This document shows, in pieces, positions 39,001 to 45,000 of a DNA stretch of 64,000 nucleotides; positions within the stretch are counted from its first letter, which is position 1; every line of letters starts with the position of its first letter. This stretch comes from Lentisphaeria bacterium. GTDB lineage: Bacteria; Verrucomicrobiota; Lentisphaeria; JABSQK01; JAWLHB01. Made by a program: the position numbers. The stretch is from positions 62,001 through 126,000 of the forward strand of contig JAWLHB010000022.1 in NCBI GenBank assembly GCA_041690595.1, read 5' to 3'.

Positions 39001-42000
39001 TGTACATGGTCGCCACGGCGAAACGGAGTTGCCGGATCGTTCGTTCGCGCCCGCTGCCCAGCGGCACCCGGTTCTCCAGATCCAGCCTGGGGCCGGCAAA
39101 GGTCAGTTCACCAATGACAATCGATCCCAGAAAAAGACAGACCACCAGCAGCCCGAACCCCCACTTCAGGTAGGAAGTAAAAGGCTGCCAGCGCTTGCGG
39201 TCGTGTTTTCGCATTCGCGCAACTCCGACGCGTACAGTGTGAAGGCATGCCCTGTCCAGGAAGACGGGGCAGTGGTGATACAGTCTGGAATATGGTGCCT
39301 GTCGGCCCCGAATTCAAGCTGAAAACCGGACAGCAAAAAAAGGCCAGGCGGAGGGGATCCGCCTGGCCTTGCCCTTGTTCTGCAACCGCTGCAAACCAGC
39401 GTGCTGAAGTTAGAACTGCATCGTCAACCCGAGGGTGATGGCATGGGCCGTGTACTGCCCGGTCTCACCATAATTCTCGTCGTTGTAATGCCAGTAGTCG
39501 TACGCAACACGACCACTCAGATTATCCGTGAACTGATGCGTCAGACCGACCGATGCGCCATGACGATCGTAGGCAACCGCCTTCTCCAGGCCGCCCGCAT
39601 CCGCCAGTTCCTCCTGGTCGTTGTTCGCCACTTCATAGAGGTAGCGCGCATCGACGCTGGTCTTGTCGGTGATCGCGTAGTTCACGCTGGTCAGGAAGCT
39701 GTACACATCCCCATCCCAGGTCGCCGCCATCGGATTCTCGAGGGAATCGAGAATCGTCCGCGACTCGTGCCAAGTGAACTGACCGTTGAAGAAGAGGCGC
39801 GCGGAAGGCATGACCGTCGCCCCGACCGTGTAGTTGTTGGAGTCCACATTGGCGCCGTGAACACGATCCGCCGGGCCGATATCACTGGTCTCGGTATAGT
39901 AGTCTTGCTTGACCATCGTATACCGCCAGTAGGAACGGAGCCAGTTGGTATGCTGCAGCGTCAGGCTTACCATCAACTCGTGCGCGTTGGTGTCCAGCGA
40001 GTCCATGAAGGCGCTATAACCCGAGGCCGTGTCGACGTCGTGGGTATAGATGTTGGAGACCTCGCCGTACTGGTACCAGGCGCTCAGCGACATGCTGCTG
40101 AAGGGGGACGTGGTGAAGCCGGCGCGGTAGCGCTGCTCGTCACGATCCGTATCCGTATCCCGGTCCAGGTCAACAGTACCGGTATCCGACTCGTACTCCA
40201 GCTCATCCAGATCATACGACGTCTGCACCCAAGTGCCACGCACATACATCTTGGTATGGGGTACCCCGCTGTAGCTGAGTTCGAGTTCTTCCTTCAGCGA
40301 GACCTTACGCTCGTAGGCGTCGATGCTCACCGGTTGGCTACTGCTGGGCGACACATGCATCACTTCTGACGAATCGTCCCGGTTTCCCAACTCCAGCTCA
40401 ACGCCGCCACTGATCATGAAGTCGTTCCAGGGACCAGCCATCGCCGCCAGGTTGAAGACGTGCGAGGTTTGTGTAAGATCCGAGTCGATCATGTAATCGT
40501 TATGGGCATGGCTGCCCGTGAACGGCAGCTGGCGCATCTCGAAGCCGACTTCGCCTTCCGTCCGGACATACAGATACCCGCCGGAGATCAGCAGCCAGTC
40601 ACGCAGCCACTTTTCCGCGGTCAGCGCATTGGAGAACTGGTCGAAGTCGTAACCCTCTTCGAAGGTCTGACCAATCGGGTCCGTGCCACCAACGACCTCG
40701 GCCGGAATCATCAGATTGCGGAAGGTGTCGCTGCTGTAGATCTCGTAGCGCATGCTGTCCTGCAGCGCCCAGTCCGATCCCTGATGGGCGATATCGAGTT
40801 TGAAGATGTGAACGTCTTCGTCGATATCCTTGTACGTCGGATAGATCTTCTTGTTGTCGTCGAGTTGCTGGTATTGGCGCAGGGACTTGGTGCCATCCTT
40901 GTACTGGTATTCGTAACCCAGCACGATGGTGGTGTTGTCCTGCGGCTTGAAGCCCAGGTCGAAGTACAGACGACCGATATCCATGTCGAATGTCGTCGCC
41001 CTCTGATACGCATCCTCGATGCCTTCATAGTACCAGCCGGTATTGTCATAATACTTGCGGAACTGCTCGAACCCGGCGTTGACGAAGATGTTCCCATCGG
41101 GGGATACCCATTCGCCCTGGATCTCATAATCGCCATTACCGGCGATGAATCTGCCTTCGAGCCGCAGATCACCGGCAATCGCGTCGCTGTTGTCGTACAG
41201 CACCGCCGACTGCAGGCCGCCGATGAAGCCGTCGTCACGCCACGTGTGCTCCCGGAAGAGGGATTCGTTCCCGCTAACGGTTGCATAGCTGATGACGGGC
41301 GAGAGGGTGAGTCGATAATTGGCCGTGGATTCCTCATCCTGAGAAATCGCCACATTTGACACGAGTGTCAGGCCCAGAATCGCCGCAAAAAGTCTACTGA
41401 TTGTGCTATTCATCTGTCTTCTCCTGATCAGTAGCGCAGGTGGGCGTTGGTATTGGAACCATGAACTGCCGTATGGCAGCCGGCCGACCAGCAGGTGCCT
41501 CTGGTCAGGAAGGAGCTGTGATTGCGCCCGCCGATCAGCAGATCCGCATGATCCGCCTGCGGCTGAGAATGGCACTTCAGGCACAACGAATTGTCCGCCT
41601 GAACCAGCATCTTCTTGTTGATGGAGCCATGAACCGCGTGGCAGGAGGTGCAACCATCGCGCAGCGCTTCATGGTCGAAGACGTGGGAACGCGCCTGCTC
41701 GCGATGGCACGAGGCGCACGTATCATTGGTGCGGGCCATCAGCATCGAGCCCGGCTTCTTGATGTCGCTGCCATGCGGATCGTGGCAGTCGGCGCAGCTC
41801 ATCTTCCCTTCAGGGACTGGATGACGGTACGGAAGTTGAAACTCGGCCTTCTTGTCCAAGTGACAACGGTAGCAGGCGTCTGACGAATCACCAGGATTGA
41901 CAATAAAGACGCCGCGGCCGCCGCCGGCTTCCACGTGCTTGCTGCCTGGCCCGTGACAGGCTTCGCAGCCGGCAAGTCCGCCAGGCGCATCTTCCACATG

Positions 42001-45000
42001 AACACGCGCATGCACGGAGAATGCAAATTTCTTCACCTGATCTTCATGGCAGAGCTCGCATTCCTGATTCCCGACGAAGGTCGCACCCGGGATCTCAGGT
42101 GGTATGACGACTGAATTGTGAAGGGACGAGCAGGCTACGAATAGCCCGATCGCCGCACCCATTAGCGCGAGTGGTACGGCTTTGCCGCGCAAAATGCGCG
42201 TCGCCCGCTCTCGCAGTGTTGTTGCCTTTGCCGAGTCTCTCACTGATTCTGTCTCCCCTGGCGCACGTTGGTTTTCGTGTTGGTGATTCCAGACAATGCT
42301 GGTCTGGACACAATCTTAGCAGCGTTCGTGCCAATTGCCGCGATTGACTGGTAACCTCGGTTAAATCAAGGACTTATGGATTCTTGTGGCTTTTCTTCCC
42401 CGGCTGCGGGCGAAGGTTTTCGGGTGATTTCGCGGAAGGCTCCGCAGATCACCGCGCAACCTTGCGCACTTGACAAGCTCCACCGCGGACCGTAGCCTTT
42501 ATTCCGACGCTGGCAAAACACTCAGTCGACCGGCCCATCACGACGTAAAGGAGCGCAGATGAAGATCGAGGTCAAGCCGTATCGTGGACGTACCCTTGTA
42601 TGGATCGACGGGCAACCGCGCAATTTGACCATGTATTCGCCGCCCGCCATGGGACGAGTCGATTTTGCCCCCGTCTGGCGGGGTTGTGTCGATCGTTTCG
42701 TGCGGCACGACATGGACGTCTACCTCATGAGCGTCCCCCAGCAATGGGAGAAGAAGTTCACGCTCAATCCCTTCTGGGCTGGCGACACGATCACCAGTGA
42801 CCCGATGTACATCGGTTCCACGAAGCTCGATGAAGGGCCGGAGTACGTGCTCGCCAAAGACCCCGAAGCCTTGCTCCTGCTCCGCTACGTCCCGCGCCCC
42901 CCCCAGGACTGGTATCCGCTCCATCAGGACGAGTGCGTTGTCGGTGCGGACGGCAAGCGCGAGAACTATCCGTCCCTTGCCTCCCCCAGCTACCGGCGGC
43001 AGGCTGGCGAACTCTGTGCGGCGTACATCCACTACTGTGAATCGCGTCCATGGGCCGAACGCCTCCTCGGCTATATCAACTACCACCTCTGCGAAGGCAC
43101 CCACGGGCCTCTCTCGGGCGGATGGCTCTACGACTACTCCCCCGCCATGACGGCCCGCTGGCGCCAGTACCTGTGCGACAAGTACGGCGACGACAGCACC
43201 CTGCGCGAGGCCCATGGCGACCCCAACCTCTCGCTGGAAACCGTCGAAGTTCCGCGCGATCCGTTGCTGGGGCCGCTTCGGGAAGTCGCCGCCATTCCCT
43301 ACTGGCAGGATGCCGTGGCCAACCAGGCCCGCCGTGACTACCTGCTCCTCACCCGCGATCTCTACCACGATCTGCTGCGCGCCATCTGCATTGCCTCGCA
43401 TGCTGCCTCACCGGCAGAGCGCCTGCACATACACGATACCTTCAAGCTGCCGATGCAGGGCTGGTCCAACCATGGCTTCTTCAGCATGGATCAGCCATGG
43501 CCCATCATCTACGCCGAGAATCTCTCCGGCTCCGGTAACATGGATGTGCTCGACCTCCTCGATACGCCTGGCCTCGACGGCGTCTGCACCCCCTATGATT
43601 ATCAGGTGCGCGGCGCCGGCGGGGTCTTCGAGCCCGAAGGGATCGCCGACTCCGTCTCCTTGCTGCCGAACAAGCTTTTCCTGGTCGAGCAGGACATCCG
43701 CACCTATGCCGGCGATGTCCACAACTGCGGGATGATGCGCGATCTGAACGAGTTCGAGGCCGTCACCTGGCGTGATCTGGCCACCTCGATCACCCGCGGT
43801 TTCATGAACTACCTCACCGATCACAACGCGGACTACTACTGCGATCCGGCCATGCATCCCATTGTCGAGCGACAGATGCGTGTCCTCTCCGCCTCCGCCC
43901 AATGGCCCCACGCCACCGTCCCCGGCATTGCCATGATCCTCGACGAGCAGGCCATCCTCGAGACCAGCGGCAGCGGCCACATTCTCAACGAGGCCGTCAT
44001 GTGGGAAGAGAAGATTGGCATCTCCCGATGCGGCGTTCCCTACCGCATCTATCTGCTCGACGATCTGCGGGCCGGTCATGTCCCCGACCACGCCGTCTAC
44101 TATTTCCCCAACCTCTACCGGGTCGACGAGGCTCGGCTGGAGTTGCTCCGCCGGACCGTGCTGCGAGATGGGCGCCTCGTCGTCTGGGGGCCAGGCAGCG
44201 GCATCAGCGATGGTCGCACCATCGCCGCGGAACATGCCACCCGCCTCACCGGCTTTCAGTTCTCCTTTCAGACGGCCAACTATCCGCGCCGCGTCCAGAT
44301 CAGCGACTTCACCCATCCCATCACCAGCGATCTTCAAGCCGACACCATCTATGGCAGCCCCATCGCCTATGGCCCGATTCTCTATCCGACCGATGGTATT
44401 CCCCTCGGCTGGGCATGGTCGAAGTTCGGCGGTGACGATGTCGGGCTCGCCTATCGCGAGAGCGACAGCTACCGTGCGGTCTTCACCACGGCAGCGCCAC
44501 TACCTGCCTGCCTCTGGCGAAGTCTTGCCCGCTTTGCCGGCGCGCACATCTGGTGCGAAAGCAACGATGTCCTCATGGCGGACAGCAGCCTTGTCGCTCT
44601 GCACACGCTGAAGGCGGAGACCAAGCTTCTCGCCCTGCCCGGCGACTATCGCGTCACCGACCTGCTGACCGGACAAAAGATTGCCGACCGTACGCGCGAG
44701 ATCAGCTTCACCATGCATGCCCCCGCCACCGCCGTCTTCCAGTTGGAGCAAGTGTGAGCTTCCGCTCACCTTTTATGGCGTCAGTGCCGTCACCCGGAAG
44801 GATTCGAGGATCACGCTGTACATGACAAGGCGGGCCTCGAAAGTTCCGGGCGGCGGCACCAACTCGACGCTCTCCCCCTCCACCGTCGGCCGGAGCAGAA
44901 AACGATCGCCGAGCCGCTTGCCTTCCGCGTCATAATAGGTCAGCGACAGCCAGCCGTTTGTGGTCTGTCGCTGACCACGCGCGTAAAGCTGGTAGGTGAC

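Follow-up and report, generated by a model that had tools for sequence, protein, structure and literature searches.

The window, a 64,000-nt stretch of DNA from a Lentisphaeria genome, contains a two-gene unit in which a multihaem c cytochrome gene is followed by a gene for a predicted outer-membrane barrel protein. These genes, the features around them, and three genes on other contigs are compiled in Table 1.

TABLE 1 Features at the cytochrome-barrel locus and genes on contigs C9 and C23
Feature	Position	Strand	Description
Octahaem c cytochrome gene	41428..42243	-	271 aa; MtrA/DmsE relative without haems 3-4
Outer-membrane barrel gene	39410..41413	-	667 aa; 26 predicted strands, predicted MtrB fold, 0 haem motifs
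Sigma-54-type (-24/-12) promoter-like site	42318..42333	-	90 nt before cytochrome start; 1 mismatch
Two similar 14-nt inverted repeats	42432..42467	.	22 nt apart; candidate activator sites
Intrinsic-terminator-like hairpin	39340..39370	-	13-pair stem, then T run; closes two-gene unit
ArrX/AioX-like periplasmic oxyanion-binding protein	38234..39214	-	Phosphonate-bd E 5e-53; candidate sensor
HAMP histidine kinase	36774..38237	-	HAMP, HisKA, HATPase_c; candidate regulator
Sigma-54-dependent response regulator	35349..36746	-	Response_reg, Sigma54_activat, HTH_8
ImcH-like gene	C9:11969-13534		521 aa; 6 CXXCH, 1 CX3CH, 3 hydrophobic helices
c554-like tetrahaem gene	C9:11289-11903		behind imcH; 4 CXXCH; Cytochrome_C554 E 6e-13
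CbcL-like gene	C23:88617-90995		792 aa; 16 CXXCH; Ni_hydr_CYTB E 5e-15

The survey's finding had described the cytochrome as MtrA-like with seven CXXCH motifs. Both the motifs and the relationship were recovered, as the protein matched Paired_CXXCH_1 (E 1e-20) and its top sequence match in the PDB was 6r2q_A, the MtrA chain of the Mtr complex (E 1.8e-24). An eighth motif, of the CX4CH type, is present at residue 251, with both Cys and the His kept in 23/23 aligned homologues. Judged from its motifs, the window cytochrome is an octahaem rather than a heptahaem protein. Alignment with six decahaems revealed a clean deletion of haems 3-4, the protein being homologous to MtrA haems 1-2 and 5-10, and its TIGR03508 score (156 bits) lies below the cut-off of 192. 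Cys38 and eight further His residues are likewise kept in all 23 homologues, and the position of Cys38 behind a hydrophobic segment suggests that the cytochrome is probably a lipoprotein. In a quick tree of 91 rows (L120 and L142 left out; eight decahaems as the outgroup), the three Lentisphaeria octahaems, whose order among themselves was left unresolved, sat at the base of a group of 21 rows that also holds Limisphaerales-type sequences (support 98).

The barrel gene runs from an ATG at 41413, with a purine-rich site ahead of it, and its product has a hydrophobic N-terminal segment, is rich in D/S/T/G/Y, and ends in Phe. The signal-like N terminus and the composition were thus seen again as first described, and so was the lack of a Pfam match: scans against Pfam and NCBIfam gave nothing above the cut-off, and PDB sequence searches, even with the family profile, found no relatives. 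The initial guess at a barrel from composition can now be replaced by a fold model. AlphaFold2, supplied with a 138-sequence alignment, predicted 26 strands (pLDDT 95.1, pTM 0.89; single-sequence folding gave a pLDDT of only 28). The closest structure to this model was MtrB (6r2q_B; TM 0.68, E 1.6e-15; Z 22.5 and rmsd 3.7 Å over 577 residues), and the runner-up gave Z 17.9 and rmsd 6.2. An hhalign comparison of the barrel family with MtrB/PioB returned 97.6% (E 3e-12, 572 columns), while the reversed alignment and another porin-like family, used as controls, returned 14% and 1%, respectively. Only 2/27 barrel homologues narrowly passed the PF11854 cut-off for MtrB/PioB, and 0/27 passed that of TIGR03509. 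A TonB-dependent receptor was rejected on the worse structure match (Z ≤17.9, rmsd ~6 Å) and a model without a plug domain, and a Geobacter Pcc-type porin was unsupported, the second porin-like family that occurs near ImcH elsewhere giving 1% in hhalign and 0 matches here. By its modelled fold and strand number and by profile comparison, the barrel family belongs among remote MtrB relatives. The porins described by He et al. 2017 (PMC5615132) and from Limisphaera (PMC13608581) were termed there not homologous, or unrelated, to MtrB, and the modelling of Fiorito et al. 2026 (10.64898/2026.05.27.727921) agrees with the MtrB relationship. An N-terminal haem domain is found in 56/114 full-length representatives of the family, and the window barrel is without one.

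The predicted complex of cytochrome and barrel scored 0.89, compared with 0.00 for the best control, the mark being reached by 116/157 solved complexes and 2/215 mismatches. Three runs shared at least 75% of contacts, with partner pLDDT values of 73 to 76, and this modelling supports binding of the cytochrome to the barrel. This score may reflect resemblance to MtrAB, whose structure is solved. The octahaem gene precedes the barrel gene in 46/48 named loci, the other two of which end at contig edges.

The pair resembles MtrAB, MtoAB, PioAB, and DmsEF (6r2q) in gene order and in its modelled barrel of 26 strands, the first of them short and strand 1 followed by a helix. It differs from them in having eight haems instead of ten, a last motif of the CX4CH type, a probable lipid anchor, and neither MtrC nor DmsAB, and its barrel is 13% identical and falls under all MtrB/PioB HMM cut-offs. 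The label "Geobacter-type" given to these parts fits the inner-membrane half but not the outer-membrane half, which is of the Shewanella Mtr type by fold and ancestry, not of the Pcc or Ext type of Geobacter. On the GSU2203/GSU2204 HMMs NF041028 and NF041027 (cut-offs, 325 and 350 bits), the cytochrome scored 160.7 bits, the barrel had no match, and homologues of the pair score only weakly.

Closer counterparts occur within the phylum. A porin and multihaem cytochrome c cluster was reported in polysaccharide-degrading Verrucomicrobia (He et al. 2017, PMC5615132), which likewise sets a porin of at least 20 strands (26 here, modelled) beside an exported eight-haem cytochrome and has homologues in Opitutaceae (many) and Limisphaerales; locus L105, linked by its record label to Opitutus sp. 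GAS368, has two porin-octahaem pairs. Unlike that cluster, the present one has a Lentisphaeria host, no additional multihaem gene, a barrel without an N-terminal haem domain, and no adjacent ImcH and CbcL genes. The He et al. cluster probably overlaps with EET3/EET4 of Fiorito et al. 2026 (10.64898/2026.05.27.727921). Limisphaera strains, which are glycan degraders, grow on ferric citrate and ferrihydrite and encode a porin of 20-28 strands with a Sec/SPII cytochrome of 6-7 motifs (Table S5g) as well as 3-helix 6-haem and 6-helix 10-11-haem inner-membrane cytochromes (PMC13608581). The same parts list recurs here, again in a putative facultative glycan degrader with NrfAH, alternative complex III, and oxidases, and a Limisphaera barrel shares 23% identity with the window barrel across 646 columns (E 1e-25). 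Where the present genome has one pair and a 16-haem CbcL, Limisphaera has a second porin locus and additional nonahaem cytochromes, and its growth on ferrihydrite has been shown. The Limisphaera support consists of gene order and haem counts, not genetics.

The features of the inner-membrane genes bore out their earlier description as an ImcH homologue with a c554-like partner and a multihaem-cytochrome b fusion. The ImcH-like protein, a member of the NapC/NirT family, has the ImcH features of Zhong and Shi (2018) that Geobacter ImcH shows, namely, three helices (36-54, 72-90, and 115-133), a CX3CH at 146, and six CXXCH motifs; it also has a conserved Glu and a conserved Lys at the 46-residue distance of E127/K173 (mapped by spacing only), and its PDB sequence search gave no match. 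The tetrahaem, a candidate shuttle that sets the system apart from that of Geobacter, has a counterpart directly behind the barrel gene in each of the two closest carriers of the pair, with identities of 52% (G009) and 47% (G012). The CbcL-like protein joins on one ORF a multihaem c domain and a cytochrome b membrane domain, which is the CbcL/MtrH/MtoC design (range, 3-23 motifs); Geobacter CbcL has nine motifs. A simple hydropathy scan of its C terminus placed five helices above threshold versus the six expected, and its matches among PDB sequences were weak and confined to haem motifs and cytochrome b. A Lentisphaerae genome was credited with a CbcL homologue in 2018.

These loci are spread over three contigs (C22, C9, and C23). 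Contamination was considered, and the composition of all three equals that of the bulk genome (GC 0.61-0.62, tetranucleotide r 0.995-0.998); the 4-kb contig with arrA falls short of the length that this comparison needs. Among the 120 RecA matches listed, eight are organism-labelled, six of them as Lentisphaeria, Lentisphaerae, or Victivallales, one as Kiritimatiellaeota, and one as 'bacterium M21'.

Among 401 genomes of the phylum, ImcH was found in 24/31 with the barrel and 10/370 without it, and CbcL in 18/31 and 10/370, respectively. The examined neighborhood of the pair (up to 20 kb) held ImcH in 19/30 genomes and CbcL in 6/30. Where ImcH occurs without this barrel, 8 of the 10 genomes match another porin-like gene found beside multihaem genes (four of these eight went into its profile, and a further caveat is one weak match), and 32/34 ImcH genomes match one of the two porin profiles. 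In family f41, 20/35 genomes hold the barrel, and the same 20 hold ImcH. Kinship and physical clustering inflate the co-occurrence, and 20 of the 24 genomes with both genes belong to one family. In G009 and G012, neither ImcH nor CbcL was found at E ≤1e-40, so the link to the pair is not obligatory. A tie of ImcH, the tetrahaem, and CbcL to the pair is supported by gene neighborhood in relatives and by co-occurrence. Were the conduit real but ImcH and CbcL occupied with Nap, Nrf, Arr, or a haem capacitor, the conduit would be otherwise fed or little used. The three separate contigs, the NapC/NirT membership of ImcH, the two carriers without either gene, and the periplasmic sinks (a Nap-like cluster, NrfAH, and an ArrA-like enzyme) are in keeping with this possibility, but NrfA is paired with its own NrfH, the Nap-like gene has NapG/NapH-like neighbors, ImcH follows porin-cytochrome genes across the phylum sample, and the tetrahaem and sigma-54-like sites are in common with the pair; we consider it improbable.

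The sigma-54-like site, found with the -24/-12 consensus of sigma-54, is the sole such match in the window, where 0.83 would be expected anywhere; the genome has 54 (~0.001 per 300 nt) and two rpoN genes. Such sites lie upstream of the octahaem gene and imcH (2/11 upstream regions tested), cbcL has only a three-mismatch site, and none was seen at the pair in 77 related loci. The inverted repeats are the only tandem pair of 99 genome matches to a pattern drawn from the site itself, and are offered only as a lead to activator sites; a search of the regions upstream of imcH, cbcL, nrfH, nap, and arrA for an activator motif in common found none. The response regulator is a candidate activator of the sigma-54-like promoter on adjacency. 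The best PDB matches of the oxyanion-binding protein are ArrX (E 8e-29) and AioX (E 6e-18), with the Cys aligned. With the sensor, kinase, and activator genes directly downstream, an ArrA-like gene on a 4-kb contig, and DmsEF as an MtrAB-type pair serving a specific substrate, the pair might have a nonrespiratory or narrow role under the ArrX-like sensor, in detoxification of oxyanions (arsenate or selenite) or reductive metal uptake. We regard this as unlikely, as the terminator-like hairpin lies between barrel and sensor genes, no related locus examined has an ArrX-like gene beside the pair, no molybdoenzyme adjoins it, and the short stretch upstream of arrA has neither a sigma-54-like site nor the shared repeat. 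Terminator-like sites numbered 2, versus 2.8 expected in shuffles, and only position favors this hairpin.

The absence of an outer-surface cytochrome was upheld: no MtrC/OmcA-type protein and no small trihaem ORF occurred among genome ORFs with at least two haem motifs, and no surface cytochrome among the lipobox-bearing haem ORFs of this 97% complete genome. The presence of nrfAH was confirmed, and haem-copper oxidase families matched at five places. The search found menB and three cytochrome c assembly genes but not the futalosine menaquinone family; PSCyt1 gave 0 matches, as did its control. The other electron sinks (NrfAH, Nap-like and ArrA-like enzymes, and oxidases) count against the conduit proposal. 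Glycan use, claimed for the host at the outset, is plausible from 76 sulfatase matches, 9 GH2 matches, and a heparinase II/III-like gene within the window. A heterotroph so equipped would need electron disposal, which, together with iron reduction by Limisphaera and the report of ImcH homologues, among metal-cycling bacteria, from Fe(III) reducers only (PMC6295460), argues against an inward conduit like PioAB or MtoAB, through which electrons from reduced humics or Fe(II) would enter and supplement sugars in the respiration of oxygen or nitrate. Such a direction, to which we give a low probability, would suit the missing MtrC-like partner, the oxidases, alternative complex III, and Nap-like enzyme, the Rieske-cytochrome b-nonahaem cluster coupled with the pair in G009, and the CbcL/MtoC homologues of iron oxidizers.

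From the observed motifs, gene order, family distribution, and co-occurrence, and from the modelled barrel fold and binding, we consider it reasonably probable that the pair is an outward conduit fed by ImcH and/or CbcL. The products of the two window genes would form a conduit of two components that takes electrons across the outer membrane, with a lipid-anchored octahaem wire inside a 26-strand MtrB-type barrel and the last haem of the wire close to the cell surface. Sugar oxidation would yield menaquinol, to be oxidized by the ImcH-like and/or CbcL-like cytochromes. We infer that the wire is lipidated, that the c554-like tetrahaem ferries electrons to it through the periplasm, that they flow outward to acceptors whose likeliest forms are soluble or diffusible (humic quinones, chelated Fe or Mn), and that sigma-54 switches on the conduit as one branch of a respiratory chain that is versatile and facultative. 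Because no surface cytochrome was found, minerals are a less likely target than soluble acceptors; shuttles may perhaps give access to them. The survey's quinol-to-surface conduit is strengthened in its outer-membrane pair and feeder link.

In Geobacter, ImcH serves high-potential and CbcL low-potential acceptors, and Lentisphaeria have been described mostly as fermenters. A tentative and rather doubtful extension is that this host has complete two-entry extracellular respiration, with ImcH for high and the 16-haem CbcL for low potential and a shortened eight-haem lipid-anchored wire without a surface cytochrome. The dispersed genes would then make up a single sigma-54 regulon, adjusted through an ArrX-type oxyanion sensor together with a haem-bearing kinase. 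If this is true, extracellular respiration would be new to the class, and the wire would be a minimal one of two proteins that occurs in nature. No report of a porin-cytochrome pair in Lentisphaeria itself was found in the literature searched, and the accessible parts of PMC5971433 and PMC8415449 hold nothing on MtrAB without MtrC. The novelty first claimed was nevertheless overstated, given the 2017 Verrucomicrobia and Limisphaera precedents and the 2018 CbcL homologue of a Lentisphaerae genome: the kind of conduit is already known, and what is new is its occurrence in the class Lentisphaeria.

The pair occurs in 3/351 Lentisphaeria genomes, of which only the present one also has ImcH and CbcL. 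A changed fate of reducing power, as initially expected, would hold for this lineage; expectations for Lentisphaeria at large would stay unchanged because the trait is rare. If the conduit reading is right, part of the glycan-derived reducing power would go to humic quinones or metals instead of fermentation products, a route that has been suggested for Verrucomicrobia from bogs and demonstrated by the physiology of Limisphaera. With two genes and eight haems, the pair offers an uncomplicated case in which to ask the minimal length of a trans-membrane wire. The wider value of the finding is the barrel family, which HMM screens would tend to miss because it escapes the Pfam and NCBIfam models.

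The 667-aa protein encoded in the window matched no Pfam or NCBIfam family. A set of 50%-identity representatives contained 475 relatives of it at E ≤ 0.001, the top one sharing 38% identity. An N-terminal haem motif was present in 56 of 114 full-length relatives, and this region was a PSCyt1 domain among the matches inspected. Single-sequence folding gave no usable model, and the model built from a 138-sequence alignment (pLDDT 95.1, pTM 0.89) contained 26 strands by count, with short first strands and a helix after strand 1. The predicted fold shares these features with MtrB, for which the short first strands and the helix are described (PMC7198977). 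MtrB was also the top structural match (6r2q_B; TM 0.68, E 1.6e-15; Z 22.5, rmsd 3.7 Å, 577 aligned residues, 13% identity). TonB-dependent receptors matched more poorly (Z ≤17.9, rmsd ~6 Å). Profile comparison with six MtrB/PioB-matching barrels gave 97.6% (E 3e-12, 572 columns) versus 14% for the reversed alignment and 1% for a different porin-like family. The barrel, which the survey's finding had drawn from composition, is thus now backed by a structural model, a structural match and profile homology.

The adjoining cytochrome gene lies 14 nt from the barrel gene. Its product, the octahaem, carries seven CXXCH motifs and an eighth haem site of the CX4CH type. Because the Cys, Cys and His of the CX4CH site, eight further His residues and Cys38 behind a hydrophobic stretch were each kept in 23/23 aligned homologues, we read the protein as an eight-haem, bis-His and presumably lipidated lipoprotein. 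Aligned with six decahaem relatives, it showed a single clean gap, with haems 3 and 4 gone. It matched the MtrA chain of 6r2q (PDB sequence match, E 1.8e-24) and stayed under the cut-offs of the DmsE (156 versus 192 bits) and GSU2203 (161 versus 325 bits) models. The survey's motif counts of 7, 16, 6 and 4 were reproduced when the ORFs of all six frames of the genome (8.1 Mb) were scanned; its MtrA-like assignment held, and the count of seven for this cytochrome has to be extended by the CX4CH site. The octahaem-barrel complex model scored 0.89 and the highest-scoring of three controls 0.00, the mark for this score being reached by 116/157 solved and 2/215 mismatched pairs; at least 75% of contacts agreed between runs, with a partner pLDDT of 73-76. 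This score may stem from resemblance to solved MtrAB. Since the predicted contacts involve alternating residues in most of the strands, we read the contacting residues as facing the lumen. That the pair is an electron conduit is well supported; it would work like MtrAB but lies outside the decahaem MtrAB families.

Along with this pair, the survey had listed an ImcH homolog and a CbcL-like protein encoded on other contigs, and both identities stood. The protein on contig C9 has three helices, a CX3CH and six CXXCH motifs, as published for ImcH (PMC6295460), and it keeps a conserved Glu and Lys 46 residues apart, corresponding, when mapped by spacing alone, to E127 and K173 of Geobacter ImcH (10.1101/2023.05.03.539133). 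The protein on contig C23 is laid out like CbcL and has 16 motifs. Across a phylum sample of 401 genomes, ImcH was found in 24/31 barrel carriers versus 10/370 others and CbcL in 18/31 versus 10/370, ratios that kinship and clustering inflate. Within one 35-genome family, barrel and ImcH occurred in the same 20 genomes, and the stretches around the pair contained ImcH in 19/30 genomes and CbcL in 6/30. Of the 10 ImcH genomes lacking the barrel, eight matched a different porin-like gene that occurs beside multihaem genes; the profile for it had been built from four of these eight, and one match was weak. In G009 and G012, two other Lentisphaeria genomes with the pair, the gene directly following the barrel encodes a protein with 52% and 47% identity, respectively, to the tetrahaem encoded behind imcH here; this tetrahaem also has homologues in 5/10 ImcH loci of the other porin type.

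At E ≤ 1e-40, the order's 14 other genomes, G009 and G012 among them and several less than 90% complete, yielded neither ImcH nor CbcL, an absence that speaks against the link of these genes to the pair. G009 has a Rieske-cytochrome b-nonahaem cluster at the pair instead, which is predicted to be a bc-type quinol interface replacing ImcH/CbcL. In G031, a Lentisphaeria genome without the octahaem-barrel pair, ImcH is clustered with a nonahaem and a CbcL-like protein of 23 haems, and a different contig weakly matches the second porin family. In other families of the phylum, a second cluster type comprises a nonahaem, a ~460-aa porin-like gene with no NCBIfam match and a 12-20-haem lipoprotein-like cytochrome, and adjoins ImcH, CbcL and the same tetrahaem as on C9.

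We regard as the probable route one in which ImcH or CbcL would take electrons from menaquinol, the tetrahaem would carry them onward as a shuttle, and the octahaem inside the barrel would hand them to the surface. Inward flow, as in the PioAB/MtoAB conduits (PMC8805035), appears quite improbable to us. As the survey had stated for an outer-surface cytochrome, the genome's haem-motif ORFs included no surface multihaem protein, MtrC-like or otherwise, and three profiles detected no second barrel.

The genome contains menB, three cytochrome c assembly genes, a Nap-like cluster, alternative complex III, cbb3-like genes, haem-copper family matches at five places and the NrfAH noted in the survey; it looks, by gene content, like a versatile facultative respirer. 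With NrfAH and the Nap-like cluster present, the inner-membrane proteins might serve periplasmic reductases, a reading that we consider unlikely. The Nap-like cluster runs from a protein of 682 aa that has six monohaem cytochrome domains through a molybdoenzyme and NapG/NapH-like genes to a hemerythrin, adjoined by molybdenum cofactor-like genes. The regulators near the pair are an ArrX-like protein, a kinase and a sigma-54 activator, and the ArrX-like sensor system may belong to an ArrA-like reductase (1119 bits versus a 1600 cut-off) encoded on a contig too short for composition-based binning. A role of the pair in oxyanion detoxification under the ArrX-like system is, in our view, rather doubtful. 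Glycan-use markers comprised 76 sulfatase and 9 GH2 matches. Two window regions with prepilin-type DUF1559 genes next to large secreted proteins (heparinase II/III, DUF4838 and GH123-like domains; several without Pfam match) are probably glycan-use loci.

Sigma-54-like sites were scored at ≤1 mismatch against a consensus. They occurred 90 nt before octahaem and 109 nt before imcH (2/11 upstream regions checked) versus 54 genome-wide, ~0.001 per 300 nt. One match was found in the window versus 0.83 expected by chance, so that only its place is telling, and no such site precedes the octahaem at any of 77 related loci. The genome has two rpoN genes, and a kinase and sigma-54 activator adjoin each site. 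The kinase beside imcH, a candidate haem-based redox sensor, bears CXXCH in its periplasmic sensor region, and this kinase/activator pair has its own 2-mismatch site. A 3-mismatch site before cbcL was left out of the count; a perfect CRP-type palindrome, one of three in the genome, lies 134 nt before cbcL. A terminator-like hairpin follows the barrel gene.

Coordinates of the pair and of other loci
Feature	Stretch	Position	Strand	Remarks
Octahaem gene	window	42243-41428	minus	271 aa
Barrel gene	window	41413 (ATG start) to 39410	minus	667 aa
Sigma-54 activator (response regulator)	window	35349-36746	minus	
Octahaem, barrel, tetrahaem, Rieske, cytochrome b, nonahaem	L014:4341-11582	G009		
G031 cluster	L160:14-10029			
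Second cluster type	L161:1634-12299, L163:807-14367, L165, L166, L162			
Histidine kinase, sigma-54 activator	L001:11927-14817	C9:13926-16816		divergent from imcH
CRP-type palindrome	L002:8484-8499	C23:88483		
ArrA-like arsenate respiratory reductase, then iron-sulfur subunit ORF	L173:520-3315	C94		3994-bp contig
Nap-like cluster	L003:2143-11804	C2:202142-211803		
Alternative complex III running straight into Na+-NQR-like operon	L004:840-13358	C3:155839-168357		NQR judged by N-terminal sequences only
UshA-like protein, four-haem C-terminal domain	L006:8733-10085	C38:74732-76084		NF041198, 227 bits versus 275 cut-off
Probable glycan-use loci	window	12993-17964, 42559-63845		
Two tandem 259-aa proteins	window	30760-32331		one membrane-like segment, long helical regions; no family match; behind pyruvate phosphate dikinase-like gene
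Single open frame		C17:~23770-78420	minus	~18,200 codons, crude ORF list

Among 351 Lentisphaeria genomes (165 at least 90% complete and clean), barrel and octahaem occurred in the same three, namely this genome, G009 and G012, all of one order; 6/8 labelled RecA matches point to Lentisphaeria and support this placement of the genome. Of the 31 barrel carriers in the phylum sample, 20 fall within the 35-genome family, which groups with Opitutaceae records in the tree. In a scan of named genomes, from which the best 79 loci were kept, the matches listed were mostly Verrucomicrobiota (Opitutaceae, Limisphaerales, Chthoniobacterales), with some Omnitrophota and then decahaem systems; of the first 48 loci listed, 46 had the cytochrome before the barrel, and the two exceptions stopped at contig edges. 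Opitutus terrae and the Limisphaera strains are cultured carriers. Five records titled Bifidobacteriaceae/Bifidobacterium (L075, L083, L114, L117, L124) carry an octahaem-type cytochrome; the four of them with a barrel group among Verrucomicrobiota in the tree. These titles look mislabelled.

The pair belongs to a described family of predicted function. He et al. 2017 (PMC5615132) found, in six genomes of bog Verrucomicrobia, a cytochrome with eight haems next to a porin with 20 or more strands; they pointed to homologues in Opitutus and suggested that electrons pass to humics, an account repeated in He et al. 2019 (PMC6344600). Fiorito et al. 2026 (10.64898/2026.05.27.727921) modelled Verrucomicrobiota porin-cytochrome clusters and showed their expression. 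Glycan-degrading Limisphaera grow on ferric citrate and ferrihydrite and have porins with Sec/SPII cytochromes and 3-helix/6-haem and 6-helix/10-11-haem membrane cytochromes (PMC13608581, Table S5g); Limisphaera sp. SKYG106 is among the genomes named there, and a record so labelled (L115) carries the barrel family. One Lentisphaerae CbcL homologue was listed by Zhong and Shi (PMC6295460). The literature covered under Lentisphaer- and Kiritimatiell- names, with most subscription journals outside it, reported no porin-cytochrome or extracellular respiration for Lentisphaeria, nor did the accessible portions of 10.1101/2020.04.01.018762 and PMC10504345, the latter classing its Lentisphaeria bin as fermentative. 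New here are the sigma-54-like sites common to octahaem and imcH, the two-haem deletion mapped onto MtrA, the full ImcH and CbcL complement within that order, and Lentisphaeria as a host class for this conduit family.
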